Shown in pieces: positions 7,591 through 45,968 of a stretch of DNA of 54,933 nt. The position numbers and the translations under genes are program-made. Source of the DNA: Prorocentrum cordatum (lineage: Eukaryota); NCBI GenBank assembly GCA_963575745.1, contig CAUYUJ010000198.1, forward strand, positions 62,001 to 116,933, given 5' to 3'. The notes below the pieces were generated by a model, which saw only the letters and a list, made by a program, of their open reading frames with translations, ran no database searches and was not told the DNA's origin. Numbering within the stretch: position 1 is the stretch's first letter; the number at the start of each line of letters is the position of its first letter.

Positions 7591-8788
7591 GCGATCGGAT
7601 CGGGGGGCGGAGAGGAAAGAGCCAGTGTGAGGGGGGAGGGAGAGAGGGAACAGCGGGCGATAAGGGAGGAGCGACGGCCGGAGCGAGAGGGTCCACGAGG
7701 GCGGACAAAGAACCGAGGAGAGGGCGAGTTGCCGGGACGGACGAGGCCAGGAAGGAGGCATGCATGCAGCGAGGAGGAGCGGGAAGGGAGGAGCACAGAG
7801 CGAGGCGAGTGTGGCGACGAGCGGGGAACAGAGGACGGGGAGCGTGAAGTGCGGAGCAGGGCACGGAGAAGCAAGGAGGGAGGCTCGAGGCGCGACCCGC
7901 ACATAGCCTCGACGCGCGTGCGGTCCACACCTTTGTCCCTCTTGGGTTGCTCATGGGGCCCTCTCGAGGCCAACTTTGGGGCCTCTTCAGCTCCCCTGGG
8001 GGCCGCTCGAGGAGCGGCCGACGCACGAGTCTCCCGGAGGGCTCGGCGCGAGGGGGCCGAACACTCCGTCTCCTCTTGCGTCGCTCTCGAGGCCAACTTG
8101 GGGCCTCTGCGGAGCCTTGATCCCCTGGGGCTCTCCCGGGCCTCCTGAGGCCATCTGGGCGTGCCTCCCGGCTTTGGGGGCTCCGAGGCGGTCCGCAGAG
8201 GTGGGGGGTGACTTGAGCCATCTCGGGGCGGCATCGGGCCGTCTTTGGGATGTCTTGGGGCCATCTTGGAGGTCGGCTGGGCCTGGACTCATATTGGGCT
8301 ATCTTGGGGGCGTCTTGGGCCCTCCTGGGAGCTCTTGTGACCCCTGGGCCATCTTAGAAGCATCTGGGATACTTCTTGGAGCCACCTGGAGCTGAACAAC
8401 AAAACAGGAGTATCGAAGACACGTTCAACAAACTATACGCTTTCTTCGTCTTTCTGAGACGCTGCACCTGGACCTGGCTCTCAAGGTGGCGCATTTTGTC
8501 CGAACCACCCTCGCCACCTATGAGCAGCGAGCAATGATGACCCGCGCCTCCGCCTCTTATGGCCCCTGCGCGGGGCCATCTTGGAGGCTGTTGGGGCCAC
8601 CTCGGCGCCATCTGGTGGCGTCCTGTTGGGTCCAGGGAGCATCTCGGAGGCCTGGTTGGCGGTCGTGGGCGCTTTTGGGAGGACCGCTTGGGCCGCATAG
8701 GCCTCGCAGAGGGCTGCTTGGGGTGGTTTTGGGGCATCCCGGTGCCCGCCCTTCTGGCAAGCGGTATCGCCGGCATTATAGCAGAGAG

Positions 8789-8991
8789 GACGTTGGGCTC
8801 GAGTTTTGACTCGCTCATCTCGCTGATCAGCGCGAAACCCCAGTGCCATTGCTGCCCCGCTGCGCACGCTTCTATCCCTGAGCTGTAGCTGATGAAATCG
8901 GGCTCCGCCTCTCGCATCTCGTTGATCAGCACCACAGCCCGCTGCCACTGTTTGCCCTTCTCGCACGCGCTGATCCCAGCGTTGTAGCTGA
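8789..8991 (-). pseudogene. PPR fragment, about 2 motifs
   Basis: SYNAGISACEKGKQWQRAVVLINEMREAEPDFISYSSGIEACAAGQQWHWGFALISEMSESKLEPNV. Confidence 0.88.
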
Positions 8992-9020
8992 CTAGGGCTG
9001 ACCCGTGGACTCCTTCCACG
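8992..9020 (-). mobile_element. Helitron-like 3' terminus (hairpin + CTAG|T)
   Basis: CGTGGA-AGGAG-TCCACG GGTCAGCC CTAG|TCAGCTACAAC. Confidence 0.65.
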
Positions 9021-10179
9021 ATGTCTTTCTGGCGGAGATTTTGTCGAATACCTATACGCACTACGGCGGCCGGGGCGGTGGCAGCGAGACCGCACCTTCG
9101 TGTCCGAGCTCTTGAAGGGCTCCAGCAGCTTGGCCCTGGTGCACGGCTCGTTCGCCCCCCTCATATTGAGGGCAATTTTGAAGTCTTTCGGGGATGTGCG
9201 TCAAGGTGGAAGCCCATCTAGGGCGTCTCAGAAGCGCCCGGGAAAGGGCTCGGGAGGCCCCCGGGGAAAGCCACTGGGAGCGCCTGGGAGGCTCGGAAGG
9301 ATCTCCAGGGGGGGCCCAAGAGAGCTTCAAGAGGGTGTGACATTCAATCAGATCTTACAAGAAACCGCTGTTGGGTCTGACGTGCTCCGCTACGCTGGAG
9401 AGGCCGTTTTGTTGGAGTTCTGTGGGAAGCGAAGCTCTCTCGGGCGTGTCAGGAGCGCCGGTCCCCCTCTCTTGGATGCAGCCCCTACTGGCCTCTTGAA
9501 GGGCTGAGGGCCTCTCAGGTCCTCGCGCCTCCGCCTCCTCCTCCTCCTCCTCCTCCTCCTCCTCCTCCGCCTTCTTGCCTCGATGCTGCATGCCCTGGAT
9601 CTTGGACAGTCAATCGTAGACCCTCGGAGCATCGACAACGGCCGTTGGGGCCTGCGTTCTGCCTCTCACCTCTCGTCCGCCCCCCCTCGGGAATTCTGTA
9701 GCCACTTAGGGCCTCTTGGGGGCCGTGTGGGGGGCCTTTTGGGGCTTCTTTTCGGCTTCGAGGGGCCTCTTGGGGCCCTCTCGGGCTCTGGTCGGTGCCG
9801 TTTGGGCAATCTCGGAACCGTCTTGGACCGTCTTGAGCGCCTCTTGGGCCGTCTTGGGGCCGTCTTGGGGGCCCATTGGGCCATGTTCGGGCCATCTTGG
9901 GTCGTCTTGGGACGTCTTTGGGGCTGCCTTGGGTGCCTCTTGGGCCGCCTTGGGCGCCTCTTGGGCCCGTCTTGGGACCCTGATGAGGGCATCGCGGGAC
10001 GATCGTGGAGGGCTCTGTGGCCGTCGTGGACGCGTTGGAGCCGAAAAAACACGATAATGTCAAACATGTCAGTTTTCCGACGGGAACGGGGAGTAGGTTG
10101 TCGAGCGAGGCTGGTGGGGATACTTTTTTGATCTGACTCAATCGGACGGGCTCGCGCTGCGTCCCGCGTTAGAACTGCT

Positions 10180-10285
10180 ATGATGGTGGGCCGCAGCTTC
10201 GCCTCCCACATTTCGTGAAGCAGCCCTAGCGCCCGCTGCCACTGACCGCCCTTCTCGCACGAGCTGATCCCAGCATTGTAGGTGA
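10180..10285 (-). pseudogene. PPR fragment, 1 motif
   Basis: TYNAGISSCEKGGQWQRALGLLHEMWEAKLRPTI. Confidence 0.88.
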
Positions 10286-10314
10286 CTAGGGCTGACCCGT
10301 GGACTCCGTCCACG
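10286..10314 (-). mobile_element. Helitron-like 3' terminus (hairpin + CTAG|T)
   Basis: CGTGGAC-GGA-GTCCACG GGTCAGCC CTAG|TCACCTACAAT; perfect 7-bp stem. Confidence 0.7.
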
Positions 10315-11300
10315 ACATCTTTCTGGAATGGTTCTCGGAGGAACGGCGCAGATTGTACCGAAAATCTAAAAACACGGCGGCGGCTCGGGCGGCGGCAGCG
10401 AGACCGCGCCTTCGTGTCTGAGCTCTTGCAGCGCTCCAGCAGCTTGGCCCAGCGCACTGCTCGTTCACCCCCCTCCTATTGATGGCAGTTTCGAAGTCTT
10501 TCGGGGATGTGCGTCGAAGTCGAAGCCCATCTGAGGCGTCTCAGGAGTGGCCGGGGAAGGGCTCGGGAGGCCATCGGGGAAAACCACCGAAAGCGCCAGG
10601 GAGGCTCGCAAGGATCTACAGGGAGGGCCAACGAGAGCTTCAATATTCTGTAAAAAAATTAGAGAAACCGCTGCTGGGTCAGCCATCACCTCCGGGCACG
10701 CCTTGATGGTGCAATCCAGTCGCATCACCGCCAACGGGAGGGTTTGTTCGCCGTGTCCCATTCTGTTCGCCCAGAGGGTCTGTGGAGGCCTTCGGGCGAA
10801 CAGAACGGGACAGGGCAAGGAATGGGGAAGACTTGTCCGAATCTCCTGGGCCCCCCCAGGTGCTCGTCCGAAGAATGCGGAGATGTCCCTGGGTCATATC
10901 AATTGGCTGCTGTCCAAGGGGTCCGGTCTGGTTGGCCCGAAGAGTTTGCCAAGGTCCCTGGGGGAACAGAATGGCACAGCATATCGGGCAAAGGCGGGCG
11001 GTAGCTGGCCTGTCAGACCCGGCGTTCGTCTTCTGCCCAAGCGGCGCGGGGCCCACGGGCCCCAGCGTTGGCGGCCCGCTGGGTTTCCTTTTGTTCGCCC
11101 ACAGGGTTGAAGGAGGCCTCCAGGCGAACATAATGGGGCAGGACAATGAATGTGGGAGACTTGTCGCAAGCTCCCAGCCCCCCCAAGTGTTCGCCCGAAG
11201 GGTGTGGGGCCGCGTTGGCTCCCTCAAAGGGCCGTCGGCAATCGTCGATCCTACGACGACTCCCCAACAGAGAAACATCGAAGGCCCTCGGAGCGTCCAA

Positions 11301-12268
11301 CATTGTTCTTTTGTGCCTTCGATATGCCGGTCGCCTCTCGTCCGCTCCCCCCCTCCTGGAAGCAATTCTCATGCCACTTAGGGCTTCTCGGCCGTTTGGG
11401 GATCTCTTGGGGCGTTTTTGCCTGCGATATGCCTGTCGCCTCTCGTCCGATCCCCCGCTCCTGAAAGGAATTCTGAAGCCACTGATGGCTTCGTGGGGGC
11501 CGTTTCGGAGCCTCTTCGGCCTTCTTTTGGGCCTCCCGGGGGAGCTCTTAGGGCCCTCTCGGGCCGTCTTGGGTGCCTCTTGGGCCGTCTTGGGGCCGTC
11601 TGAGGCCCGCCTCGGCGCCTCTTGGGCTGTCTTGGGCCGTCTTGGGCCGCTCCTGGGGCCGTCTTGGGTGCCTCTTGGGCCGTCTGGGGCGCCTCCTGGG
11701 CCGTCCTGGGGCCGTCCTGGGGCTTCTTGGGGCCGTCTTGGGGCCCTCCTGGCCCGTCTTGGGGCTCTCTTGGGGTCCTCTTCGGCCGTGTTGGAACGGT
11801 CGGGGGGACTTCTTGGGCCGTCTTGGAGCGTCGGGAAGCCGAAAAGGCGAGGAGGCCGAAAACATCGGAAAACACGGTAGAAATCGACGATTTCTGTCGC
11901 TCGGGGCCCTCTTGGGAGGCCTCTTGGGAGGCCTCTTCGGGCGTCTTGGACGCCTCTTGGGCCGTCTGGGGAGAATCTCGGGCGTCTTGGGCCCATCTTT
12001 AAGCGTGTCAGGGCTCTCCGGGGCCGTCTTGGGGGCTTCTGGGGGCCCTCTCGACATGTCCTGGAGCCTGCCTGGGCGGCCCGGGGCGGCCCGGGGCCAG
12101 CCCGGGGCGGTTTTGAGACATTGGAGCCTGGGCCCTTCTGGCACGCACTGGGCCCTGCAATGTAGTAGAGACTAAGGCTGACCCGTGGATTCCGACCACG
12201 ACATCCTTCTGTAATGGTTTTAAGAGGAACGGCGGAGATTCTGCCGAAAACCCATCAGCACGGCGGCG
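11301..12268. repeat. ~970-bp dispersed duplication, copy 1 (copy 2 at 22138-23108)
   Basis: Colinear, highly similar sequence from CATTGTTCTT.TGTGCCTTCGATATGCCGG to CACGGCGGCG. Confidence 0.9.
12172..12200 (-). mobile_element. Helitron-like 3' terminus variant (TTAG) at a head-to-tail junction
   Basis: CGTGGTCGGAATCCACG GGTCAGCC TTAG|TCTC TAC TAC ATT GCA GGG CCC AGT GCG TGC CAG AAG GGC. Confidence 0.6.
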
Positions 12269-12334
12269 GCCAGGGCGACGGCAGCGAGACCGCGCCTTCG
12301 TGTCCGAGCTCTAGCAGCGCTCCAGCAGCATGGC

Positions 12335-12441
12335 CGTCGCGGGGCCGCCGTCGTCGCCGTCATCGTCGGCGTCGTTGCCGTCGCCGTCGCGAGGCCGCCG
12401 TCGTACCCGTCGTAGTCGGCGTCGTTGTCGTGGTGGTGGTT

Positions 12442-12479
<38 letters not shown>

Positions 12480-12488
12480 CGTCGTCGT
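12335..12488. repeat. (GTC)n/(GTCGTG)n simple repeat
   Basis: Directly visible. Confidence 0.9.
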
Positions 12489-14279
12489 TGGTTGTGGGCA
12501 CCGAAGGACTGACCCGTGGACTCCGTCCACGAAATCTGCACGAACTGGCATCTGATGGAGGGGGCCGACCTCGCACTCCGCGCATGCTACTGCGTGCTGC
12601 TGCTTGCTGTCGCTTTTGCGTACTATTGGTAGTGCTTGAGGCCGCTGCTGCTTGTTCTTGCTGCTTATGGCTGCAGATTGTTGCTGATGGCCAGTTCCCT
12701 TCTACCCGCTGTCTGCCGCTGCTTGCTGCTGCTGCTGCTGTGTGCCGCCGCTGCTGCTGCTGCCTGCTTCGTGCCCACGGAAGAGACCGATGCTGCCCCA
12801 AGGCGCTCGGAATGTCGCACGGTGGACTGTGCATGGGCATGGGGGCTCACTGTGGACGCGCAGGGAGCCACGTACTTTGGGGCGCCGTCTCCGCGCCCCT
12901 CTGAGATCAGACTGTGTTGGGAACTGTGCTCCCTGGAGGCCTCTAGTGTATCTCGCCTCACTTGGGCGGCAGCGGCGAAGGGCGCCCTGGAGCTGGGAGG
13001 CAATAGTAAAGGGAAGTAGCGTCCATGTGTCTGTCCATTGGTCGGCGATCTTTCGCTCGCGCCCGCACCCACGGAGGAGGGCAAGGCTCCCTATTCGGCC
13101 ACTGATGGTGGGCGCTTCCTTCTCCTTGGGAACCGTTTGGGGGCCTCTCGTGGTTTCTTCTCAGCCTTCTAGGGCTTTTTGGGGGCCCCTTTGGACTGTC
13201 CTGCGGCCTCCTGGGGGCCTCTTGGGGCCCTCTTGGGTACCCCTTGGGCTGTCTTGAGGCCGTCTGAGGCCGTCTTGGATGCCTCTGGGGCCGGCTTGGG
13301 ACCGTCTTGGGACCGTCTTGAGCCGTCTTTGGCCGCTCTTGGGGCTGCCTTTGGTGAATCTTGCGCCGTCGTGGACGCCTCAGGAGCGGTCCTGGGGCCG
13401 TCTTGGGCCGTCCTAGGGCCGTCTTGGGCCGTCTTGGGGCCCTCATGGGGCGCTCCTGAAGCGTCCTGGGGCGGTCTTGGGGGCGTGAATTGTTCTCTTG
13501 GACGCTTTGAAGACGAAAAGCGTGGGAATTGCGAAAATTTGCTCCCGCTAAGGATTGGGGCGATTTTTGCTAGTGCGGGCACTCTCGGGGCTTTTCTTGG
13601 AGCCCACTTGGAGCGTTTTGGGAGCCTCTTGGGCCATCTGGTGGCTATCTTGGGCGTCTGCGAGCGCTTTTGGGTGTGGGGCCGCTCTTGGGGGGCCCCG
13701 GGGTCGTCTCGGGGCCGTCTGGGGGCCCTCTGTTGGGCCCCCAGGTCGCCAGCGCGCCTCCAGGGTAGCTCCACAATGACCGCCCGCCGGCCTAGAGTCG
13801 GCGGGAACGATTCTGGGCCACTGCGCCGCCGGCCCAGAATCGGCGGGACCGATTCAGGGCCACCGCGCCGCCGGCCCAGAATCCCGCCCGACGCGCCCTG
13901 GACGGCAGCGCGCGCTTCTGGGGTCGGCCGAGGCGGTTCTGGGCCACCAGACGAGCGAAACACGCCATGGCCCCAAGAGGCCGCGGAGAGGGCTCCAGAC
14001 CAACAAAAAGGCTAGGAATTTCGGGCCACATCCGGCAGGGAGCGCCAAACAAGCATCAGAGCCCCATGGTGCGCTGGGAGCCGTTTTGGGACCGTTTGTT
14101 GCCGTCTTAGACTATCTTTGGCTGCTGTTGATGCTGCCTTCGGTGCTTCGTGGGCCTTGATCTTGGGGCCTCTGGGGGTCGCTTAGGAGCCTCTCAGCGC
14201 TTCTTTTCGGTCTCATGGAAACCTCCTGGGATCCTCTTGGGCTGTCTCGGGTGCCTCTTGGGCCGTGTGGTGGCGATCC

Positions 14280-16071: not shown

Positions 16072-16101
16072 CTAGGGCTGACCCGCGGCCTTCCCGCCGC
16101 A
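16072..16101 (-). mobile_element. Helitron-like 3' terminus, GC-stem subfamily
   Basis: GCGGC-GGGAAG-GCCGC GGGTCAGCC CTAG, followed by the PPR-like QDGRTSARGGADRWQRTGSL. Confidence 0.55.
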
Positions 16102-17372
16102 GAATCTGCCTGCCATGGTGTGGACTCCGCACTGGGGCCGCTCAGGCGCCCGGTGCACGGGAGGATCAACGATAGGACGCTGGAGTAAGTGTCCATTTGG
16201 TTTACTTGGGGAGAAACTGTCCATTTGGTTTACTTGGGCTGTGCGTTAGGAGCCTTCTCGGGGTGCCTGGACACGCTTTGGGCCTTCTTCAGGGCATGCT
16301 CGGGACATCTCTGTGGCTCCTATCAGCTTTGGGGCCATTTGGGGCGCCCTCCTCGTCCTCCCCTGGATCCTTCATCCCGTCGATCTTTCGGTGTGTCTGG
16401 ACCCTCTTGGGGCCTCCTTCGGGTCATGCTCGGGACATCTCGGTGGCTTTTATCGGCTTTTGGGGCCATTTTGGGCGTCCTTGTCCTGCTCCTCCCCGCG
16501 ATCCTTTACCCCGTCGATCTTCGATCGTCAATCGTCGACGCTCCCCAAGAGACAAGCATCCAAGGCCTCTTGGGGGCCGTGTGGGGGCCTCTTTTCGTCC
16601 TCCTGGGGGTCTCTCGGGGCCATCTTGGGCCGCCTGGAGTGCCTCTTGGGCCATCTTGGGCCATGTGGAGCCGTCTGGGGCGCCTCTCGGGCCATCTTGG
16701 TGCCGTCTAGGGGCCACCTTTAGAAGCAATGTTGAGGCTACATGCCTCTTGGGGGCCGTTTGGGTGCTTCTTTTCGGCCTCCTGAAAATCACTTGGGCCC
16801 CTGTTGGGCCGTCTTGGGTGCCTTTTGGGCCGTCTTGGGGCCATCTGGGGGCGTCTTGGGCGCCTCTGGGGCCGTCTTGGGGCCGTCTTCGGTCATTATT
16901 GGCTGCTCTTGGGGCTGCCTTGGGTGCGTCTTGGGCGCCTCTGGAGCCGCCCCGGGGCCGTGTGGGGCAATTTTGGGCCCCCCTGCGGGGCTCAAGGCGC
17001 ATCTTGAGGCGAGCTGGGGGGCCTGTATAGCCGCCTTGGACGCTGTGAGGACGAAAAAAACGGAACATTATGAAAATGCGCGTTTCCCAAAGGGAATGGG
17101 ACAATTTTGGCTTCTTGGGTCCCTCCTGGAGGCCCTCCTGGGCCGTCTTGGGAGCCTTCTGGCCTGCCTTGGGGGCCTGTGGCTGTCTCGAAGCTCCCAG
17201 GGGTGCTCTGAGACCGTCTTGGCGCCTCCTCGAGCCTCTCGGAGTTGTCCCGAGGCTGTCTGAAGCCGTTCTTGGGGCAGATGGACCCCCCACTGAGCCG
17301 TTTTGGGGTCGGAACCAACGGTCAAGATAGAGACCCTTCTCGCACGCAAAGGTCGCTGCATTGGAGAAGAGA

Positions 17373-17401
17373 GTAGGGCTGACCCGCGGCCTCAGGCCGC
17401 A
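17373..17401 (-). mobile_element. Helitron-like 3' terminus, GC-stem subfamily (CTAC variant)
   Basis: GCGGCC-TGA-GGCCGC GGGTCAGCC CTAC|TCTC TTC TCC AAT GCA GCG ACC TTT GCG TGC GAG AAG GGT. Confidence 0.6.
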
Positions 17402-19780
17402 GAATGTGCCTGCCACGGTGTGGGCTCCGCACTGGGGCCGCTCAGGCGCCCGGCGCACGGGAGGATCGACGATAGGACGCTGGAGTAACTGTCCGTTTGG
17501 TTTACTTGGGAAGTACCTGTCCATTTGGTTTACTTGGGTTGTGCGTTAGGAGCCTTCTTGGGGTGCCTGGACACTCTTTGGGCCTTCTTCGGGGCATGCT
17601 CGGGACATCTCTGTGGCTCCTATCGGCTTTTGGGCCATTTGGGATGCCCTCCTCGTCCTCCCCTGGATCCTTCATCCCGTCGATCTTCGTCAGGAGCCGT
17701 CTCCGTTTGTCTGGACCCTCTTGGGGCCTCCTTCGGGTCATGCTCGGGACATCTCTGTGGCTTCTATGGCCTTTGGGGGCTATTTTGGGCGTCCTCCTCC
17801 TGCTCTTCCCCTCGATCCTTCATCCCGTGTCTATCTTCGATCGTCAGTCGTCGCCGCTCCCCAAGAGACAAGTATCCAAGGCCTCTTGGGGGCCGTGCGG
17901 GGGCTTCTTTTCGTCCTCCTGGGGGTCTCTCGGGGCCCTCTTGGGCCGTCTTGGGTGCCTCTTGGCCCGTCTGGGGCCTTCCTTGGGCGCCTCTGGGGCG
18001 CCTCTAGGGCGGCCTTGAGACCGTCTTCGGGCTGTCTTGGGGCGCTCTTGGAGCTGTCCTGGATGCTTCTGGGGCCGTCATGGGCGACTCAAGAGCCGTC
18101 CTGGGGACGTCATGGGTCGTCTTGGGGCCTTGAAGTCCTCGGCCCGCCCGGCGGGGCCTGATGCCCTAGCACCAGTGTTTGTTTTCGTCGCGGACAGGCT
18201 TCCCATGGTGCCCTGTGATGCGGTGCACTGCCGTCTGGAGACTTTGAGCACTTCGGATTTCGCGCGTTGCGCGCGCGAAATCAGCACTGCGTGGAAAGAG
18301 GCTGCACTGCGTATGCGCGTCTGCCCTGCGAGGCACTCCAGTGTCCTGCGGCCAGAGCCGGGATGCCGCTGCAGAAAGACGGGCGGCGCAGAGGACGTGA
18401 AGGGCCGCGGGGGAACCATCGAGAGAAAGGGCTCGTCAGACAAGCTCCGAGACGGCAACGCCGTGTGACTGAATTCCCAGTTGCGCGGCGCGTCTTCTAT
18501 TTGCGCGCGAGGGTGCACGTCCTCGCCGAGGTCGCGCGGCGTGGCGGGCTCAGACACTGAGCCCCCCATCGGCCAGCCCCTCGCGCGAGCCGCGGGAACT
18601 CCGCCGATCACACGGCGTCACCTTCCCGCCGCAAATCTGCTCGCTCGGCGCAGTTCTCGGGGCGAGCGCACGTCGTGCTCGGGCACTGCGACCGGGCGCG
18701 CCGAGGTGGCCGCGCGCCTCTCGCGATCTTGAGACGGCGACAGCACTGCAGCTCGCGCGTGGGAGCGCTCGCCTCACAGGGGCGCCAGCTCGAGCGGTGC
18801 CTCGAGGAGCAGACGCAACCCTCAAAAGCTGGCCTGTGTTTGCTTCGACGTCTAAATGCGTGTCCTGGCGAGTCCACAGGGGCGCCGACGCCAGTGCTCG
18901 GCGCGCTTGCGAAGCTGGCGGACTCCAGCGCGGGCGCCTTCAGGAAGCTGGCTGCTCTCCAGAAATGCCCACACTGCCCCCCCACCACCCGAGACGCGTT
19001 GAGCGTGGACCTGCGCTGCGCGCCAGATGCTGATGCGATGGCTTTTCGCCCATGGGTTCCCCGCTCGCAGTGCCCAAACACATGGACTTGACAGCGGGGT
19101 GGGTCCGAGAAAGATGGCGTTGCGGAGCATGCTCGTGCGGCGGCCATTTTGGCGGGATGAGATGGTTCGCGCGTTGATCGAGCTGTTTGCATGCATTCTT
19201 GAAAACCCGCGCATGCATGGGCTGATTCTTGCCGGGGCCTCTAGGATACAGTGGCCCGGTATACACATATAGAACGCACATCCATGCGCAAAATCTTGCT
19301 CGGATGTCTACAGACGGAAATCCACCGATGTCCTGGCGCGTCTCGGGCGACGCGATCACGGAGAGATTCCACTGGACTGGGCCGTGCATCTGTTTGTCCG
19401 AGGGTGGGGGGGGGGGCCAGGGGGAAGGCGCCCTCGATCCCGATGTCCTTCGGGGCCTTTCGGTAGGTCCTCTCTCTGCTTTCCGAAATGAGGAAGGGTA
19501 GCTTGGCGCGCGGCAGGGGGCTGGTCGGCTGCGTCGCGGGCTCGCAGCTGCCGAGAGAGAACATGCATTAGGCGCAGCGCGCTTCGAGCACCCCAATGCC
19601 GCGGACACTAGATCACATCATGATCCACTAGGTGCGCATATTGTAAGCGCGTTGGGCAGCTTGGCTTTGAAGTACTGTAATGTTTAGGCTAGTCTCGCAT
19701 GCTGTCTGCAACGCGTACTACTCGCGCTGCGTGTAATCGTAGCTTGTGTCTGGAATCTGCGTGGAAAGATGCTGCCCTCC

Positions 19781-33644: not shown

Positions 33645-34885
33645 CGTCACTCCGCTGGGCCCCCCAGCAGCGCTCGACAATGGCGACAGCTTCGCACATC
33701 GCAGCCCCACAAGGATTGCGAGGTCTCCTGGTGATCTGGGTAAGATGTCACTTCGCTGGACCCCCCAGCAGCCGTCGAAAGTGGCGACAGCTTCGCAGAT
33801 CATATCCCCCCAGGGATGGCGAGGTCTCATGGTGGTCTGGGTAAGCTGAGCAAAATGCGCGCGGGGTAAGAAGACAGCGAGGTGGTTGTGTGTTTGGCCA
33901 GCTTGGCATCTTGCTCTGTGTCGGCGCCCCCTTTTCCTCCGCGCCTGTCCGCACATTGTCTGTCCTGGCGGCTGTGCGTTCGGGGGGGGGGGGGTGTGGG
34001 GTGGCGCCGGCTGCGGCGACACACCTCGCCTGGGGACCGCCGTGCTTGGGGGATCCGTGGTCAGCGCCAGGTCGGGATGTGAGGTAGGCGTGGTGGCAGT
34101 GGCCCGTGGACATCGTGCACGCCGCTCGCGGACCAAATCCCCATGAACCTCGCGCCATACGTGCAGCGCGTGGGGAGGCGGACCACTCACCCATCCCACC
34201 ATCACAGGGGGATGCGAAGCCCCTGTGAGTGGGACGTGGTGGGTAAGAGGGGCCATCATAGGCACCTCGCACTCAATTCGAGACCATCCGAAAGGCTCGT
34301 TTTGGGAAGAAGGTCATCACAGGCCTTCAACCTCAACATCTTCTTGAACACGGTTCGGGGCCGGATTCGCGATTCGCATCATGGCGGTCCTCGAGGTGGG
34401 CAACATAGCCGCCTCACCATGGCCAATCAGTTCATGTTTTTGTTATTGGCTTCATTACATGTGTTGCATGCTCTCCCCCAGCAGCTGTCGAAAGTGGCGA
34501 CAGCTTCGCACATCGCAGCCCTACAGGGATGGCAAGGTCTCCTGGTGGTCTGTGTAAGAAGTCACTCCGCTGGACCCCCCAGCAGCCCTGGAAAGTGGCG
34601 ACAGCTTCGCACATCGCAGCCTCAAAGGGATGGCGAGGTCTCCTGGTGGTCTGGGTAAGACGTCACTCCGATGGACAACCCAGCAGCGAAAGTGGCGACA
34701 GCTTCGCAGATCGCAGCTCCCCCCCCCAGGGATGGCGAGGTCTCCAGGGGGGCTGGGTAAGACGTCACTCCGCTGCACCCCCCAGCAGCCCTCGAAAGTG
34801 GCGACAGCTTCGCACATCGCAGCCCCACAGGGATAGCAATGCCGCCTGGTGGTCTGGGGAAGACGTCACTCCGCTGGACCCCTCA
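33645..34885. repeat. ~103-bp tandem repeat (2 + ~4 units) split by a ~620-bp insert at about 33850-34470
   Basis: Unit GTCACTCCGCTGGACCCCCCAGCAGCC.TCGAAAGTGGCGACAGCTTCGCACATCGCAGCCCC...GGCGAGGTCTCCTGGTGGTCTGGGTAAGAC. Confidence 0.88.
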
Positions 34886-36251
34886 GCGAAGGCTTTCCAA
34901 ACCGATTCGGGGAACACATGGTCCGATAGCTTGGCAGGTCTGGCCTTTACGTTCGGCCACATAGGCGCTTCCCAAAAAGGCAGGGGGCGGCGGTGATTCG
35001 CCGTAGGCGCCCTCGATAATCCATCGTCGGGTGTTTTGACAGATGCCCTCCGTCTGTACACGCGGGTTCTCGCCCCATTCCTCATGCGTGCACGGCGAAT
35101 ACTGAGGATGTCAGCCCAAGAGGCCCCGAAAAGGCCCCCATGAAGCCCCAACAGAGCTCCAAGAAGCTTTCAAAAAGCGCACAAGAGGCCCTCAGGAGCA
35201 ACACGCAACAACCGCCAATTCCCCAAGGGGTCGGCGGTGTGGCGTGAGCCCAAGAATCTGCACGAACGCTGCCGAACGGCCGACATATGATGACATGGGG
35301 CTCGAATGTCGTATTCCGCGCATGCAACTGCGTGCTGCTGCTTGCTGCCGCTGCTGTGTGCTGCTGGTAATGCTTACCGCTGCTGCGTGCTGCTGCATGC
35401 TGCTGTGTACTGCTGCTTGTAGCTGCAGGGTACTGCTGATGGCCTGTTCTAGTTTGTGTGCGGTTGCCCGCTAACTGCTGTTGCTGTGCGCTCCCGCTGC
35501 TGCTGCCCGCTTCGCGCTGCTGCCTTTCGCTGCTGCTGCTTGATGCTGCAGGGTGATGCCTATGATTACTTCAGCGTTCTGGGGCAGACTGCTGACGGGA
35601 GAGGATCGGAGAGCGAGGAGTCAGGTCGAGAACGTCAAGGAGGTCGAGGGGGAGAAGCGATGGGCGATCAGCGAAGAGCGAGGAGCGAGAAGGGATGAGC
35701 GAGGGCAGAGGGGCGATGGGCGAGGAGCGTCGAGGTTCGAAGAGGTTTGCCGTCCTTTTGCAACTCTGGGGACTACTCTCGCTCGCCATCGCTTGGACGT
35801 CCATTCCCTGTGCACGTTTCGATTTCGTGCGTATTTTTTCGCAACGTGAACAAACATGCTCCTCGATGGTCCTTGCCGGTAAAAAATGCCCACGTCCGAG
35901 CGATGCCAAGCTCGGGCTCCGGGACCGTCAAACGTTGACCAAGGGGGAGAGGCCCAATCAGGACAGACCCCCCCCCCAGGGTCTGGGGACCCGTTCCTCG
36001 GGGATTTCATCGATTTCGAGGGTGCGTTGGGTAGGAGGCTGGAGGAGTCAATTGCTGCTTCGTGTTTGTTCAGGCTGCTTGCTGCTAGTGCTGCTTGCTG
36101 GCTGGCTGGCTGGCTGGCTGGATTAATTGCTGCTGGTTTGCTTGCCTGCTGACTTGCTGCTTGCTGCTGCTGGTTCCTGCAGCTGCTTCCTTCCGAAAGC
36201 TGTGACGGGGTCTCCTGGGCTGAATCTATGCCTTTGAGGGTGGCTGGTCCC

Positions 36252-36350
36252 AGGAGGAGGAGGAGGAGGAGGAGGAGGAGGAGGAGGAGGAGGAGGAGGG
36301 CGGGCAGGAAAAGGAGGAGGAGGAGGAGGAGGAGGAGGAGGAGGAGGAGC

Positions 36351-36423
<73 letters not shown>

Positions 36424-36424
36424 A

Positions 36425-36495
<71 letters not shown>

Positions 36496-36564
36496 AATGA
36501 TGATGATGATGATGATGATGATGAGGAGGAGGAGGAGGAGGAGGAGGAGGAGGAGGAGGAGGAG
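36252..36564. repeat. Compound microsatellite (GGA)n-(GAT)n-(GGA)n
   Basis: Directly visible. Confidence 0.97.
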
Positions 36565-37833
36565 CTGCCTTGGAGCCCGGCTGGGCCTTCGGGGGTAAAC
36601 ATGCTGCGAGAGGGGGCGTCTTGGGCCGCCCTGGGGCGATCTGGGGCCGCCCTGGGGGAGTTTTCGGGCCACGGCTGGAAAGTAAGACGCGCGCGTGCGC
36701 CATATTTTCAGCGATGTTCCATCGTGGCTGTGGGAGGGAACAAAGAACCCCCAGAGCTTTCTAAGGGGTCTGCCATGAGACGTCTCTCAGAAACGGTTCT
36801 GGGGGTGTCTTGAGGTCTCTCGGGGACCTCCTGGGGCCTTCTTTTGGCCTCTTGGGGACCTCCTGGGGCTTCTGGGGGGCCTCTTGGGGGCCTGCTGGCG
36901 GTCTCGGGGGTCATTTTGGGACAGAGGGCGCGGAATGTCAGGTCGAGTTCCCCTTCTTGGGGCCCTTTTGGGCTGTCATGGGGGTCGCTTGGGCGGTTTG
37001 GAAGCCTTCTTGGGTCGTCTGGGGAACCCTCCTGAGGGCATGTGAAGCCATGTTCGGGCGATCTTGGAGGCCTATTGGGCCGTCTTTGAGCGTCGGGAGC
37101 CCGAAAAAGCGAGAACGCTAGAAGCATTGAACAACATGGTAAACAGTAATTTGTTTTGCCTCCTGGAGGTCCTCATGAAGCCCTCTTTGGCCGTCTTAGC
37201 GGCCTCTTGGGCCGTCTTGGGGGTCGCTTGGGCGACTTTTGAGCCCTCTTGGGCCGTCTGGGGGCCCTCTTGAGGGCCTGTTGGGCTGTGTTGGGGCGAT
37301 CTTGGGGGCCTCTTGGGCATTCTTGGAGCGTCGGAATCCCGAGAAGGCGAGAATGCTAACACCATTGAACAACCTTAGGAATCCTAGCGCGTTTTGCCTC
37401 TTCGAGGTTCTCTTGGAGCCCTCTTGGGGCGTCGTAGGGGCCCCTTTGGCCGTCTTGGGGGCTGCTTGAGCGGTCTTGGAGCCCTCTTGGGCCGTCCAAG
37501 GGGTCCTCTTGGGGACCTGTCGGGCCGTATCGGGACGATCTTGGGGGCCTCTTGGGACTTCTTGGAGCGCTGGAAGCCGGAAAAAGCAAGAGCGCCCAAA
37601 TCACTGAAACAATGAAGGCAACTCAATGATGTTGGCCTCTCGGGGCCCTCTTGAGGGGCCTCTTGGAGCCCTCTTGGGCCGTCTTGCGGCCCTGTTGGGC
37701 CGTGTGAAGGCCGTGTTGGCGACCTCGCGGGTCGTCTGGAGGCGTCTCGGGCCATCTTGGACCGTCTCGGAGCCCGCCAGGGCCAGCCGGGGGCGATTCT
37801 CGCACGCGCCGATGCCGACCATATGGAGTAGAA

Positions 37834-37937
37834 GTCGTCGGGCTCGAGCTTTGACTCCCACATCTCACGGAGCAACCCCAGCGCCCGCTGCCACTGCTCT
37901 CCCTTCTCGCACGCGCTGATCCCTGCGTTGTAGCTAA
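37834..37937 (-). pseudogene. PPR fragment, 1 motif
   Basis: SYNAGISACEKGEQWQRALGLLREMWESKLEPDD. Confidence 0.9.
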
Positions 37938-37966
37938 CTAGGGCGAACCCGTGGACTTCGTCCACG
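37938..37966 (-). mobile_element. Helitron-like 3' terminus (hairpin + CTAG|T)
   Basis: CGTGGAC-GAA-GTCCACG GGTTCGCC CTAG|TTAGCTACAAC. Confidence 0.7.
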
Positions 37967-39033
37967 ACCAGCAAGTCCCCCTGGCGCGCCTCCACGTTGG
38001 GTCCCCGCCCAGGAAGAAGTCACCCCGAAGCCTTCGGTGACTTTTTCAGGCCGCCTTTCCGAAGTTGGATGGCGGGCGTTTCCTCCTCTTCGTCCGCCTT
38101 CCGCTCCACGTCCGCCTGGACAGCAATCGAAGCGTCACAGACGGCTATGGTGGGTCTGCGGTGTGCCTGTCGCCGCTTGCCTGCTCCCCCTGGTTTGAAC
38201 AATGTTGAAAGTACCTGGGGCCTAGAAAAAAGTCACCGCTCGCTCTTGGGAGCTGTGCCTGGGAGAGCTCTACGCTGCGGCTCGCTCTTGGGAGCCTTGG
38301 TGAGAAGAGCCTTGTACTTTACCGATCGCGTTTTTAATGGGCGTCTCTGGGCCTGCTTGGTGGTCCTTGTGGGTGTCTTTTTCGAGCCATTCTGATGCTT
38401 TTTGGGGCTGCTCTGGGAGCGTTTTGGGACGTCTCGGGGCCATTTTGGGCCGTCACGGGGCGTCCGTGAGGCCTTGGACCGTCTTGGAGCTCTCGTGGGG
38501 CTGCCTGAGGCTGCCTTGAGGGCCTCTTAAAGCCCCTCGGAGCTCTCTTCAGGCCGTCTTGGGGTTCTGTGAGGCCGCTTCAGGGCTCTCTGGCGTCGTC
38601 TTGGAGCTCTTGTGGGCCGTCTTGGAGCCCTCTTAGGGGCCGCTGGCGTCTTCTTGGGGCGATTTGGGAGGCCTCTTGGCGTGTCCTGGGCCGCTGAGGA
38701 GCACACAAGGCGGGCATGCTGAAAATATACGTTTTCCTATAAGAATTTGACGATTTGTGCCTCTTTGGCGTGCGCTCGGGGCCCTCTTGGGGCGTCTTTG
38801 CGGCCTCTTGGATCGTCGTGGAGCCCCCCCGGAAGGCTTCGGGCCCTCGTGGGCCGTCTCGGGACCCACTGAGGCCGTCTTGAAGCGCTCTTAGAAAGTC
38901 TGAGAACCCCTCTGGAGCGCCTCTGGGACCGGCCTGAGCGATTCGGCCCCGTGGTGGCGCCGTAAAGGGGCGACTTTGTCCACTTGAGGCCCTGGGCTTC
39001 TCGCACGCGCTTCCACCGGCCATGTAGGAGAGA

Positions 39034-39060
39034 CTAGTTTGCTCGGGCTAGCAGTCGAGC
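39034..39060 (-). mobile_element. Helitron-like 3' terminus with an unrelated hairpin sequence
   Basis: GCTCG-ACTGCTAGCC-CGAGC AAA CTAG|TCTC TCC TAC ATG GCC GGT GGA AGC GCG TGC GAG AAG. Confidence 0.5.
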
Positions 39061-39589
39061 GCGCAACAGAGAATAGTGACAACTGGCGGTCGCATAGACT
39101 CCAGGAATCTGCACTGATCGCGCTGGTCCCATACGACTCGGGGCACAGACTGCGGAGAATCGAAATTAATCCTTTGGCGCTCTCGGGGCAAGCTTGTGTC
39201 CTGCTCGTGGTCTGAGTGTGGCCCTCTTGAGCTTTCTTGGGGCCCTGGTGGGCCTTCTTGGTGCTACCTGGGCGTTTCTTAAAGTTTCAGAGTGGCAATG
39301 TTTGGGGCGTGAGGGCAGGTTGGGGAGCTCTTGGGAGGCCATGATGGGGCGGTCTCGGGCCATCGTGGAGACAGCTCTGGGCTGGCTTGGAGGCCAGACA
39401 ATGGAGTCCCAGGACATCTTGGGAGCGTATGAAGCCCTCTTGAAGCCTCTTGGAGCCTCCCTGGCGCTGTCACAAACATGGGGACCCCATCTGAAAACAC
39501 TCTTGCGAGCGAAGACTAATATAGCTAGATGCACTGAGCACAACGTCTTCGCCAGCATGGATCGCAGACAGTGAAGTAGTCCACTGTAC

Positions 39590-39985
39590 ATGTGTATTGT
39601 CTGTGGTGTAATATGTGTGGTGTAAACTATGCGATGCAAGCTATGTGTTGCTAGCTACGTGGTGTGAGACATGCGGTGAACGCTGTGGTGAAGCTAGGGC
39701 TTGCTGTGTGTGTATGTGTATAATATTATGTGTCGCCAGCCCTAGGGTGCAGGCTGCGAGGTGCAAGCCATGTGGTGTGTGCTAGATGGTGTAAGATATG
39801 CGGTGCCATACGTGTAGTGCAAGCTCTGTGGTGTAAGCTGTGGCGGCATGAGCTATGCGGTGTAAGATATGCTGCGGAAGCTTTGTGGCGAAAGCTATGT
39901 GGTGCAAACCAGGTGTTGCAATCCAGGCGGTGCAAGTTTTGTCGTGCAAGCTACAGGGTGCAAGCTATGCAGTGCAAGCTAGGTA
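39590..39985. repeat. Degenerate ~15-bp minisatellite (GTGGTGCAAGCTAT-like); related inverted tract at 48250-48500
   Basis: Recurrent TGCAAGCT/GTAAGCT/GCTATG units. Confidence 0.75.
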
Positions 39986-41999
39986 GTGGCTACGTGATGC
40001 AACCCATACACATGTATGTGCATATGTGCATATACGCATGTATATACATATATAACATATGCACTATAAGTACATACATACATATAGGATTTCTAGAAAA
40101 ACGCACGCGCTTCGCGCGCTCACGTTCTAGCCAGGCAGCCAGGCCGGAGATGCTAACTCTTGAAAGGGTTGTCGTTGGGCGATATTGGACATTTCTAAAG
40201 CCGTCCGAAGGATGTGCCAAACAGGTGGCAGGTCCCACGACCTCAGGCCAAGAACGCTCCAAGACGGCCCAAGATTGCTTCAAGATGGCACGACCGGTTC
40301 GCAAGACTTCCCAAGAGCGCTTCAAGACAGCCCAATGTCGCCTCAAGACGGCCCAGAAGATCTCAAAGGGGGCCCTCGAGAGGGCCTCCAGAAAGAATTG
40401 TTCACACATCCTTTTTGGAGAACGTGCGTTTGTAGCATGCCTACTCGCCTTTTGTCTCCAAGAAGGCCGCGAGGCAGTAAGAACATCCGACGATGGGCCA
40501 GGAGGCTCCCAAGCGCGATAAGCCCCTAAGAGGCCCCTAGGAATCCCCAAGAAGGCCCAAAACGCCTCCAAAGGAGCCCCCCAAGAGGCCTGCAGAGGCC
40601 CCAAGATACTCCCAAGCGGCCCCCAAGAGGCCCCCAAGAAGCCTCCACGAAATCCCAAGGTGCCGCAAGAAATGTCCAAGAAGCTCTGGGTCCCAGGACA
40701 CTTCCAAGAGGTCCGAAGAGGCTCCAAGAGGCCCCCCCAAAGGCCACCAAGAGGCCCCAAGGAGGCTCAAAATGCGTCCTGGAGACTCCCGAGAGGCCTC
40801 CCAAGAGACCCATCGAAGACTCCTAAAGAAGCCTCTTATCCAAGACCCTGTTTGGCCCCAGGGACGCCCCAATAACCCATCGAGAGGCTTCCTCCTCCTC
40901 CTCCTCCTCCTCCTCCTCCTCCTCCTCCTCCTCCTCTTCTTACATCTATTACTCCTCATCGTCTCCCTCTCCTCATCATCCTCTCCTCCTTCTCATTTCT
41001 CTTCTCCTCCGCCCGCCAAGTGACGGAACCAACTACCGCCGCCATACAATTTCCCAATCGCCACGAACACACAAAACAGGAGTACAATACTGGCGGACAG
41101 AATGAACGAAGCGATTGAATAATCGTCAGACGCGGCACGACTGCAGGAAAGTCCCGGCGGCGCGCGGACGCTTCAGTGCGGATCGGTGACTCGGGCGGAC
41201 GCGGTGTCACGGTGACGTCGACAACGGCAGAAGCGATGATGGCAGTAGCAATGACGGTTACGATGATGGCGATGAAGACGTCAAGGCCAATGTCGGCGCC
41301 GATGTTGGTCACGCCGGTGACGCTGATGAAGTTCATGTGCCGCTGATGAAAGTCTTAACAAGACTTCGACATGACGTGCGGCCGCCGCGCGCGAGTGGCC
41401 CGCATGGTATTATGTGGCAGGTAGGGTGCCCCCCCAGCAAGCGTGCCAGGGCGTCCGGATGATTTCGACACGCGCACGCGAGAGGCCCGCGCGTGATTAT
41501 TTGACGAAGATGCCTAACAACCGATCGTTGCCCAAGTGCTCGAAAGAGCGCGCGCGCAGATGGTTGAAATATGAGGATGAAGCACAGTTCTGTTTTAACA
41601 TGTGGTCGGTAACCTCGACTTTGAAATCCGTCCGAAACCTAAGGTTTTGGATAAATAGCGACATGCGCGCGATCACGCGCGCGTGGACTTTGTCCAATTG
41701 GTTTGCAAGTGCTTCTTTTAAAACGTTGTTCTGATTACACCAGAGGAAAATCAGATCAATGAATTTATGCTTTTGTTTCGCAGGTGCTTCGATCGGCCTT
41801 CATCCCGTCCTAGTCTAGTTCGAATGTACGTTATAGTTCAGTCTACTTATTTTATGTTCCTCTCTCTCTCTTTTCTCTGTTTCGTTTTCTCTCTCCTTCT
41901 CTTTCCCTCTCTCTCTCTTTCTGTCTCCCGTGGTGTCCTGTGGCGGGGGGGGGGGCTTCCGTGCTATGCTATATGCTATATAATATGTTGTGTCATGCC

Positions 42000-42690
42000 A
42001 GCGATAGTGACATCGCTAGTGCTATCGATAGTGAGGTCCACTGAGTGAGATCGAAAGTGACATCGAGCGTAAGATAGATACTTAGTGAGATCGATATTGA
42101 TGTTGGCAGTGATGTCAATTGAATGAGTTCGATTGCGAGATCGACAATGGGATCGATAGCGAGATCGATAGTGAGACCGATAGTGACATCGATAGGATGA
42201 GATCGATAGTGAGATCGGTCGTGAGCATGGATCGTGTGCTCGATAGTGACATCGATAGTGAGATCGATTGGGTGGCATGGCCAGTGAGATCGATCAAGAG
42301 GTCGGCTGTGGTATCGAAATGGCGATCAATCGTGATTTCCATCGTGAGATCGATTGAGTGACATGGATAGTGAGATCGATGGTGAAATCAAGAGTGGCAT
42401 CGATAAATCGATGGTGAGGTCCATCGTGAGATCGGTAGTGCGATCGATAGTGAGATCGATAGTGATACCAACAATGATACCGATCGTGAGACCGATCGTG
42501 AGAACAATCGTGAGATCGATCGTGAGACCGATAGTGAGATCGACAGTGAGATCGACTGTGAGATCGATAGGGGTACCACTAATGATATCGATCGCGAGAT
42601 CGATCGAGTGACATGAACTGTGCGAGCGATAGTGAGCTTGATAGTGATATCGAATAAATGAGATGGATGGTGAGACCAATCGTGAGATCG
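42000..42690. repeat. Degenerate 12-bp GATC-rich minisatellite (GATCGATAGTGA)n
   Basis: Recurrent GTGAGATCGATA; translates as IVRS repeats. Confidence 0.9.
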
Positions 42691-44408
42691 ACCAGGAACC
42701 TGGAACCCCGGAAACAGAAACTTGAACCCTGGGAACCCCGCCGCCAACCGAAATCGGCTCGGAAGCAGCAACTGGGAACCGGGGACCCCGGTACCAAGAA
42801 CCCGGGAATCCGGCCGCCCACCGAAATCGGCCGGGCAATCCTCTCAATCTCCGCTAGGACCCCTTCAGTGCAAGCACTGAATTTTGGGAATAAACGACCG
42901 CGCGCGCACAATACCATTTGACAGGGATGAGGGGTGGGGCGATACGGGGCCTGACTCCCTGGGATGGTATAAGTTCTTACGTGGAGCGAACGATGAGGCA
43001 TAACCATGCGTCAATTGCAATGTCCCAGGGGGCGAAGATAACCCAGGGGGTACTAGTAGAAGCGAAAATCTATGTGATACAATCTATGTTGTGCAGTTTA
43101 CGCGGCGACGGCGTGGCAGGACGGCGACGGCGACGACATAGCCGCCAGACCGCCAGACACGCCCAGACGACGGGAGGCGACGAGGTGGCCACGGGGCGGG
43201 GATGGCGACGACAGAGCCGCCGGACCGCCAGAACGCCCACGCCGTTCGAATAAGAGTGAGGACCCCGTTAGGGCAAGCACTGTTGAGGAATGTATGCATG
43301 TATGGATACATACGCAGCCATCACCACCGCCTCCCGAGGTCCAAGAAAATCGGTAACTCAGGCGGTGGATATGTTTATCCACGTCCGAACTGCAACGAAC
43401 TTCGCGGCAATCCGAAAGGCCAGGTGTGTGTTGCAAAAATCAACACGATAGGCCACCGAAGCCCCTTTGCAACACATTGTATTGTTACCCGTTGCAAGTC
43501 ATCCCCCCTGAACCCCCCCAGGACTCCCGCCAAGGTGCCGACTCACCTCCGTTCACCGCTTCGCACAACGAAAACACACCGAAACCAACGGAACATAAGT
43601 GAGTTCGGCCTCTTGAGCTTGCCAGGGGTCCAAGAGGGCCCCAAGACGGCTCAAAATGGCTTCTGGAGAGTCTCCTGGAGCTTTCGTGGGCTGTCTCGAG
43701 CGTCTCGCGTCTGAAGCTCGGTGGCACCGCCAGAAGCCCCTGGAGGCCCGTCCTGGGGGTGGCTCGGGCCTGTCGCGCGCCGCCCAGACAGCTGTGTTTT
43801 GGGCCTTCCCGCGCCATCTCAGGCGGCCCGAAGGCGCGCCAGGGCCCCGTGACACACATTTGTGGTCGCGGGGGCGCGGCCCCCGGCCCCCCAAGGCACG
43901 GTGAGCCGTCATGTGCACTCACACGCATACGTCGTGCCAATCTTTCAATATATGGTGAAATCTGTGTGTGGTGCAGGCTCTGTGGTGCAAGCAAGGTGTT
44001 GCGATGTGCGGTGCAAGTGTTCATGCAGCCCAGAAGGTGCAAGCGGTGCGACCTCCCACAGGGGCGCCCTCGGGCGGACACCAGGCGAAACCCTGGCAGA
44101 CATACACCCTGCGAAATGCTTAAGAAATCATGGGTTAAGAAATTCATAGTCTCAGAACTTGAATAAAAACCCAGAACTTCTATCAAAATCTTGGGATTTA
44201 CATTCAAAAGTTAAGAATAATCGAGACTCTGGCCGAAACTTTAGGTTTTCTTAAGCATCGCCTAAGGTGTACCCACGGCAGGGTGCGCCCCCGATGTGCC
44301 CACGGGCGGGCACGGGCGGGCACCAGGCGAAACACTGGCGGACCCACACGGCGCACGGCGCACCCACCAGACTCCAACGACCAGCCACCAACCATTCACC
44401 AAGTTCAA

Positions 44409-44606
44409 GGGAGCGTAAGACCCGGGTACGGGGGACTCGGAAATCCCCGACGAGGTCGTCAAAAAAATGACGAGGCCGAGCCTGCATTTTGACGAGGCCT
44501 CCCGCTGCAGACATCCCACGAAACTCCTCCTCGTCAAAATCCGAGGCGCGGTCGTCAAAAAACGATGGCGAACTCGAGTCCCGGCAAACCCGGGTCTTAC
44601 GCTCCC
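44409..44606. mobile_element. MITE-like foldback element (198 bp)
   Basis: Perfect 19-bp terminal inverted repeat GGGAGCGTAAGACCCGGGT / ACCCGGGTCTTACGCTCCC, plus inner GGGACTCG/CGAGTCCC and TTTTGACGAGG/CCTCGTCAAAA pairs. No clear TSD. Confidence 0.5.
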
Positions 44607-45134
44607 CCAGGGGGACCACCCAGCGAGCGGGACGCCCACGAGGCGTCCAGGACTGGCCACCAAGCGGGCAGCAGGCGGAACCTCGGCGGTCGAGTTCGAT
44701 CCCTTGGGTAACTCAAGTGATGAGGACCTCCAAAGGCAAGCATTACGTGGGGAACACACAAACAAAACATTGCCACAACAACGTGGGTCTAAAACATTCG
44801 CCCTTTCGCCAGAGGCCCAACGCCCCAAGTAGCTTTCAAGATTTGGGGCTTCCTGGAGGACCTCCGGGGCTCCTCTTGGGGCCCTGTGGGACTTTCTATG
44901 GAGGCCAGCTTGAAACCCCTTCGGCGACTTGGGGCACTCTTGGAAGCCTGCTGGGCCATCTTGGAGCCCCTTCGCGGAGCACTTGGACCGTCCGAAGGCG
45001 CTCCTACGGGTCTCTCTGGGGTCTCGTGGGGGATCCCAGGCGCTTCTGCGACCGGCTGTGGACCCCTCGGAGCTGGAGGTACCCGTCGTCAGTCGTCAAC
45101 CCCGCGAGCGCTTCAGCTGGTATTTTGGAGGAGA

Positions 45135-45965: not shown

Positions 45966-45968
<3 letters not shown>

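Follow-up and report, generated by a model that had tools for sequence, protein, structure and literature searches.

The 54,933-nt stretch of Prorocentrum cordatum DNA analysed here (contig CAUYUJ010000198.1, positions 62,001 to 116,933; hereafter the window, to whose own positions all coordinates refer) holds an array of pentatricopeptide repeat (PPR) motifs interrupted by a series of insertions, which are probably non-autonomous canonical (Helitron1-type) Helitrons with a PPR-derived left end, placed site-specifically at the boundary between PPR motifs. The GC content of the window varies between about 0.51 and 0.74 per kb, the features lie on the minus strand, and the part from about 6 to 45 kb consists of minus-strand repeats and GC-rich 10-11/21-nt satellites. 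Among the 129 open reading frames (ORFs) of at least 170 aa, Pfam recognised PPR repeats alone, besides one sub-threshold ZrgA match in a His/Asp-rich repeat. ORFs in six islands match Pfam PPR_2/PPR and contain 35-residue repeats; relative to the Pfam cutoff of 30 bits, PPR_2 scored 48.1 and 30.1 bits in two ORFs, and 18.8-28.8 bits, under the cutoff, in four more. Using an nhmmer DNA profile of the 105-nt motif, ten intact motifs were found in these six islands (E 2.5e-30 to 9.4e-23), all on the minus strand:

8788..8991, minus strand: PPR island A, two motifs (nhmmer E 6.6e-27 and 9.4e-23; Pfam PPR_2), lying between two elements, H11 (3' end) and H12 (5' start)
10181..10285, minus strand: PPR island B, one motif (nhmmer E 2.2e-27)
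21828..22037, minus strand: PPR island C, two motifs (nhmmer E 1.2e-28 and 4.9e-28)
27106..27420, minus strand: PPR island D, three motifs (nhmmer), internal boundaries unoccupied, a decayed terminus just upstream at about 27421-27445
37833..37937, minus strand: PPR island E, one motif (nhmmer E 2.5e-30)
45135..45239, minus strand: PPR island F, one motif (nhmmer), with three extra nucleotides (CCA) between the island and the upstream CTAG

All ten island motifs are open and mutually in frame, the motifs on both sides of the insertions are about 80% alike in DNA, and the database proteins nearest to the PPR parts are mostly annotated as Prorocentrum cordatum. On the minus strand a conserved terminus, ..GTGGACGGAGTCCACGGGTCAGCCCTAG, precedes every island, as a decayed remnant at D and with the three extra nucleotides at F, and each island is followed by a start sequence of the form TCTCnnC TAY AAT GC. 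Ten elements of 713-6101 nt were delimited by such ends, and are given here together with the less complete copies:

6293..8787, minus strand: H12, 2495 nt, 5' start TCTCTGCTAT, 3' end ..CCAGCCCTAG, divergent subterminal region
8992..10180, minus strand: H11, 1189 nt, decayed 5' start TAGCAGTTCT, 3' hairpin and CTAG
10286..12171, minus strand: H10, 1886 nt, 5' start TCTCTACTAC leading into PPR-like sequence, interior of GC-rich 10-11/21-nt satellite, 3' hairpin and CTAG
12172..12502, minus strand: element truncated at its 5' side, with just the 3' part present, ending in TTAG and stacked on H10
12503-12521, minus strand: degenerate terminus
16072..17372, minus strand: H8, 1301 nt, compensatory hairpin variant GCGGC..GCCGC, 3' flank a decayed PPR
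17373..21827, minus strand: H7, 4455 nt, ends CTAC, 5' start after island C
22038..23011, minus strand: H6, 974 nt, 5' 874 nt 95% identical to H10
23012..23724, minus strand: H5a, 713 nt, 5' start TCTACTACAAT (30/36 PPR-like), stacked on H6, upstream flank neither PPR nor terminus
27048..27104, minus strand: 5' start that follows island D, TCTCTCCTAC..., in frame (+3), with about 55 nt of PPR-like sequence
27421..32157, minus strand: composite stretch, 5' start TCGCACCTAC at 32157, a further start at about 31312, ends in the decayed terminus before island D
32158..37832, minus strand: H3, 5675 nt, delimited by ends
37938..39033, minus strand: H2, 1096 nt, delimited by ends
39034..45134, minus strand: H1, 6101 nt, 3' end ..GCAAACTAG, different hairpin
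45243..45335, minus strand: possible 93-nt mini-element, hairpin and CTAG, preceded by a weak PPR-end-like stretch (nhmmer E 5.9)

The 3' ends of these copies are well conserved and structured. A 19-mer of the terminus found 11 matches with up to three mismatches, on one strand only, where 0.03 would be expected; CTAG closes ten of the 12 3' ends (the others read TTAG and CTAC), and the following base is T, again in ten of 12. Between a hairpin (7-bp stem, 3-4-nt loop) and the 3' end lie 12 nt. When 12 ends were aligned (11 of the window and one of the metagenome contig L002 described below), 90.9% of 77 stem cells proved to be paired, compared to 29-44% when the partner arm is slid, and compensatory changes occur at two pairs (five cells; T-A to C-G and A-T to C-G), with a score that was reached by 2 of 500 shuffles. 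The 3' ends at 6293 and 39034 carry other, weaker hairpins. The sequences that precede the last ~35 nt belong to several unrelated classes; Helitron subfamilies usually share their termini only. The maintenance of a hairpin by compensatory changes on unrelated 3' regions points to selection on a transposition signal. A PPR origin of the 3' terminus was considered and rejected, as the last 45 nt agree with the PPR tail at 12-17 of 45 positions (background mean 12.3, standard deviation 3.2), and a fraction of 0.10-0.59 of background 45-mers match the PPR tail as well as or better than the right ends do.

The 5' ends, on the other hand, resemble the target itself. According to the original prediction, intact PPR sequence switches at one fixed point into a PPR-like stretch, usually with two extra nucleotides, and this is what we observed: all six islands stop at the same motif boundary, in five of them (A, B, C, E and F) 7 nt rather than 5 lie before the TAC codon, and the case it had described as in frame, near 27104 at island D, has 8 nt, i.e. 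+3. Likewise, a TCTC-type start directly follows the terminus at each of the six places named (6292, 12171, 17372, 23011, 32157 and 39033). Two more starts were found, at 23724 and about 31312. The consensus of the starts is TCTCnnCTAC, or in a longer form TCTCnnCTAC..GCGTGCGAGAAGGG. Because the 7-nt element start TCTCnnC replaces the 5-nt TCAGC of the PPR before the shared TAC, the apparent "+2-nt frameshift" is a length difference at the element start and not a frameshift event. A sharp 5' boundary after a PPR motif end or CTAG was found for 12 of the 13 starts. The proposal that the 5' end consists of TC plus PPR-derived sequence needs some correction with respect to TC, which is present in 11 of 13 starts (that after island B begins with TA and that after C with CC), and the PPR 'A' thought to precede the start is found at three of the six PPR-flanked starts, the remainder having C, T and T.

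In a fixed register, element nucleotides ~8-45 agree with the PPR consensus at 19-30 of 36 positions in 12 of the 13 starts, compared to a mean of 9.7 (standard deviation 2.7, maximum 24) in 105,038 background 36-mers; the start at 21830, after island C, reached 12/36, an ungapped score that is not significant. All nhmmer matches of the left ends are on the minus strand and start between profile positions 2 and 5. The left end is derived from the start of a PPR motif. Since the first ~45 nt of the element are PPR-like, the 5' junction of each insertion again resembles a target site, as had been predicted, and this fits the CTAG|TC stacks. In a tree of 36 columns comprising 12 mimic and 13 intact starts (the start at 21830 was omitted because of indels), a clade of mimics was neither supported (0% of bootstrap trees) nor rejected (approximately unbiased test, p 0.275). 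The idea that the mimic is copied afresh from the local target at each insertion found no support: 3 differences in 36 positions separate the starts at 12171 and 23011, and 5 in 36 their downstream PPR motifs, B and the first motif of C (C1). The left end therefore appears to travel with the element, an argument limited by the fact that these two copies may be duplicates.

The placement of the copies is equally regular. Five of the 12 clear 3' ends adjoin an intact PPR start, six the start of another element, and one, that of H8, a decayed PPR near register (5 of 500 shuffles score as high). All copies are co-oriented with the PPR reading strand, and the insertion position, N|TCAGCTAC, is the boundary between two 35-residue repeats; 35 AT dinucleotides within the islands are unoccupied. 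The 5' flank is whatever PPR base stands there (A, T or C), which places the constant part of the site 3' of the cut; in the six stacks the flanking base is G or C, and the insertion joint carries a 2-nt TC ambiguity. Stacking looks like a consequence of site preference and not like a rarity. Older decayed PPR motifs (nhmmer E 1.5e-12 to 0.0028) were also seen on the minus strand at 4874-5342, downstream of the 5' start at 6292, and indicate that the invaded array reaches beyond the interval of the finding itself (8740-45134).

Taken together, these ends match those of canonical Helitrons, which begin with 5' TC, terminate in 3' CTRR, carry a hairpin 10-15 nt from the end and insert at A|T without target duplication, as described in several papers (PMC5148889, PMC2267711, PMC4778049, PMC11417382). 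Among the ten delimited elements we found no target duplication (shared flank words of at most 5 nt), no poly(A) or A run and, in all ten, no terminal inverted repeats (longest inverted word 4-5 nt between the first 30 and the last 80 nt). Inverted terminal repeats are the mark of Helitron2/Helentron. Moreover, the maize junctions printed in Table 3 of PMC10095026 read a|TCTCTACTAC...CCTAG|t for HelA2 and a|TCTATACTAC...CTAG|t for Hel1-4, and the starts at 12171 and 23011 are TCTCTACTAC, so that their first 10 nt equal the printed HelA2 5' end. The original prediction had recognised the TC start, the PPR-like left end and the target-like 5' junction and had missed the Helitron identity, in the light of which TC, CTAG and stacking become ordinary.

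The same junctions recur in other data. Sequencing runs, the best of which had a word share of 0.22, were compared as contigs only, and stretches without cover are uninformative. In run X1 the body of H10 is present in many copies, 21-46 contigs being found at each variant site. Contigs of runs X17 and X20 (25 and 17 records, respectively) depart from the window exactly at 8991/8992 and run on as the end of the preceding PPR motif in an uninterrupted array. A metagenome scan with the 19-nt terminus yielded two loci, one of which, L001, was discarded as a chance match in a bacterial contig; the other, L002, contains satellite, the hairpin and CTAG|TCACCTAC, after which three or more motifs follow without interruption. 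At the protein level, a search with a junction query returned 30 proteins, of which 12, several of them from Prorocentrum cordatum, read ..VHG[SP]ALV|[SV]Y[NS].GIS, and a further one, P0004, has a different end before the junction (..HRYTLV|TYNAGIS). Eight junction proteins extend past the island (which has 1, 1, 1, 2, 2, 2, 2 and 5 motifs), and in all eight the PPR frame is lost immediately beyond the boundary; for six of these, back-reading from the residues alone is compatible with a PPR-like start that comes next in a frame shifted by two bases. A protein search with the 3' region of the element alone (residues 1-63) gave 14 candidates, none of them significant.

Some further observations were made on these records. 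At L002:648-672, about 130 nt upstream of the true 3' end, a second, truncated hairpin first arm (..GACGTGGACGGAGTCCA) is fused to satellite. Many database proteins annotated as Prorocentrum cordatum PPR proteins (P0001-P0003, P0007, P0008, P0021-P0023 and P0026) contain whole PPR motifs in two wrong frames (..SATTLGSARARRAGSGSG.., ..LQRWDQRVREGRAVAAG..), and frameshifted or pseudogenised PPR arrays seem to be common in Prorocentrum cordatum gene models. In P0011 and P0012 a variant junction, ..TLHGSALV|G[CF]SGEIS[MI]C.., leads into a (GA)n tract read as RERERE; similar tracts lie in the window at 1375-1476 and 45935-45975. In X17 and X20, which are tentatively taken as RNA runs, contigs cover 10264-10643, from the H10 3' region into PPR island B, and if these runs are truly RNA, the H10 end is transcribed together with PPR.

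Several points weigh against the interpretation of these copies as site-specific Helitrons. The window is a single locus in which some copies are duplicates (11298-12268 and 22134-23108), so the junctions are not all independent events. None of the 12 3' ends adjoins unrelated DNA, which can mean either extreme specificity or no free transposition. The unoccupied boundaries at 8991/8992 in X17 and X20 are paralogous, and an orthologous empty site was not seen in these contigs. As the protein query itself held the junction, its hits demonstrate recurrence and not specificity. The 5' flank departs from A at half of the PPR-flanked starts, as given above, and the 10-nt identity with HelA2 could partly follow from TC combined with the PPR-like TCnnCTAC. 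The mean pairwise identity over 36 pairs is lower in the first 20 nt (0.56) than in the last 20 nt (0.73; 0.88 in a subset of seven elements without H12 and H1), which is odd given that the left end was found to be essential in the Helraiser experiments reported in PMC4778049; the copies may be old and dead, or may have exchanged sequence with the PPR. Finally, Pfam detected no RepHel/PIF1 domain among the 129 ORFs of at least 170 aa in the window, so the copies would be non-autonomous.

The duplication within the locus leads directly to the strongest alternative, which accepts the elements as Helitrons and supposes that a single old insertion at a PPR boundary, or a few of them, spread to further boundaries and arrays by ectopic gene conversion or unequal crossing-over between the flanking 105-nt repeats. 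PPR motifs that are about 80% alike flank the insertions on both sides, a 975-nt stretch across a stack junction (11298-12268 versus 22134-23108) is duplicated at 95% identity, and all copies were seen in PPR context. This scenario does not account well for the unrelated 3' classes that keep the last ~35 nt and a hairpin with compensatory changes, for elements that range from 713 to 6101 nt and differ in content, or for CTAG|TCTC stacks joined at exact ends with TC alone in common, where homologous exchange would retain TCAGC. On balance we regard it as unlikely.

A second alternative dispenses with a transposon and supposes that a diverged PPR motif was split by foreign DNA or satellite, the mimic being its first half and the terminus its last, and was then amplified with the array. 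It draws on the PPR-like 5' stretch standing in motif register, on the terminus being in frame with the next motif (..DVVDGVHGSALV|SYNAGIS) and, once more, on the PPR context of all copies. However, the PPR-tail score of the last 45 nt is at background level (12-17/45), in contrast to 19-30/36 for the presumed first half, compensatory changes keep the hairpin while the encoded residues change, and TC...CTAG|T together with a hairpin 12 nt from the end constitutes a specific Helitron signature. We therefore consider such an origin quite improbable.

We think it still less probable that the elements are introner-like introns of a PPR gene, with CTAG as the 3' splice site and the islands as exons. 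The elements do end in AG, the ten island motifs are open and mutually in frame, Helitron-derived introners have been reported (PMC12130899), and use of a CTAG end as 3' splice site is described for maize in PMC10095026. Yet the 5' boundary is TC, TA or CC with no GY donor, so that exact intron removal would need a non-canonical donor; contigs covering 10264-10450 and 10277-10643 run unbroken from island B into the element (in runs guessed to be RNA, which may be DNA), and no spliced joint was seen in the run contigs. The weakest alternative, a site-specific non-long-terminal-repeat retroelement or short interspersed element (SINE) co-transcribed with its target, would share the fixed target position, orientation and target-derived 5' end that characterise target-specific long interspersed elements (LINEs), and can be practically dismissed, as the elements have neither a poly(A) or A-rich tail nor a target duplication nor a reverse transcriptase ORF (Pfam found no such domain among the 129 ORFs in the window) and their ends match those of Helitrons.

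If the copies are site-specific Helitrons, their behaviour could be explained as follows. A RepHel enzyme encoded elsewhere in the genome would act on the non-autonomous copies by nicking the left end, peeling off one strand up to the hairpin-CTAG signal and integrating this strand, a mechanism that was established for Helraiser in the work described in PMC4778049 and that we infer, by analogy, to apply to the elements in the window. The enzyme would read single-stranded DNA at the element ends; the fixed site and strand suggest that it accepts the PPR boundary as a look-alike of its own left junction. After insertion the 5' junction would again present N|TC followed by PPR-like sequence, on which the next copy could land, giving rise to stacks. 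The left end itself might, as a conjecture, have originated from a PPR boundary (or from a degenerate motif like the one following island D) that took on the role of 5' end for a 3' end already resident downstream of it. It is further conceivable, if doubtful, that the target is chosen by nucleic-acid likeness, the PPR-derived left end of the single-stranded or circular intermediate aligning with or replacing the PPR boundary and the transposase cutting where the genome resembles the joint between right and left terminal sequences (RTS-LTS); instead of guidance by homology, ectopic recombination or recognition of the site by a protein may account for the pattern.

The interiors of the elements and the remainder of the window show additional repeats. 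The GC-rich 10-11/21-nt satellite (GGGCCGTCTTG on the plus strand) occurs in element bodies at 9700-10000, 11500-11830, 13180-13490 and 22340-22670, and further at 23100-23660, 30000-30220 and 37180-37600; it is inverted at 32390-32900, and this opposite orientation in the element ending at 32158 indicates that the satellite is not a fixed part of the elements. Long elements hold other tandem arrays (14279-15911, 24600-25551, 33646-34887, 42124-42691 and 36252-36564) with periods of ~300-350, 361, 101, 12 and 3/9 nt. Outside the repeat region, four long co-linear ORFs of 512, 554, 310 and 484 aa lie on the minus strand at 48951-54745. Pfam gave no match to them at E 0.001; a YVDG-type polymerase-like motif and a tyrosine-recombinase-like tail, both recognised by eye, suggest that they may belong to a DIRS-like retroelement.

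Helitrons are known as near-random integrators at AT sites that shuffle genes. A family that keeps to one position and one strand of a multicopy coding repeat, and whose left end comes from that repeat, would be an uncommon case of a Helitron with sequence specificity. If confirmed, it would offer a natural system for studying how a Y2 HUH transposase picks its target, and would bear on how very large PPR families and repeat-rich dinoflagellate genomes are shaped. Were the choice guided by likeness, the family would be a eukaryotic HUH transposon with specificity for both strand and sequence, and a different left end could in principle direct it to another target. If, instead, the pattern results from recombination inside PPR arrays, it would be a case of ordinary Helitron decay. 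Literature searches, which covered open-access papers and bioRxiv, turned up neither a link of Helitrons with PPR repeats or with Prorocentrum nor a Helitron that is fixed at one position of a multicopy repeat or has a left end derived from its target.

Compared to known systems, the elements are most similar to canonical Helitrons (Helitron1/HLE1) such as maize HelA2 and Hel1-4 and bat Helibat/Helraiser, with which they share the 5' TC, the 3' CTAG, the hairpin and the T on the 3' flank, as well as the absence of duplication and inverted repeats, termini as the only part common to subfamilies and an interior of captured or satellite sequence. In contrast to these, ~35-40 nt of the left end come from the target repeat, conservation is lower at the 5' ends than at the 3' ends, and A on the 5' flank is limited to three of six cases. 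Bacterial HUH transposons (IS608/IS200-IS605, IS91) offer a parallel in that one nuclease cuts both end and target and the target tetranucleotide matches or pairs with the element end. However, their enzyme family and ends are different, and their targets comprise 4-5 nt, whereas the likeness observed here spans ~40 nt. Helraiser, in the experiments covered by PMC4778049, prefers AT dinucleotides in AT-rich DNA, whereas here the target is GC-rich and consists of one fixed sequence and strand. Head-to-tail CTAG|TC (G/T) junctions are known from the maize r1 region and from Myotis, and were ascribed in maize to consecutive insertion beside a resident Helitron (PMC2267711); in the window, by comparison, six of 12 3' ends within 40 kb are of this type, and the rest lie at a PPR site that resembles the left end. 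A similar confinement to one site of a multicopy repeat, which keeps damage to the host low, is described in PMC3706591 for target-specific transposons, namely Dada DNA transposons in small RNA genes and R2-type LINEs in rDNA, although their chemistry differs and the target invaded here is a repeat in coding or formerly coding arrays.

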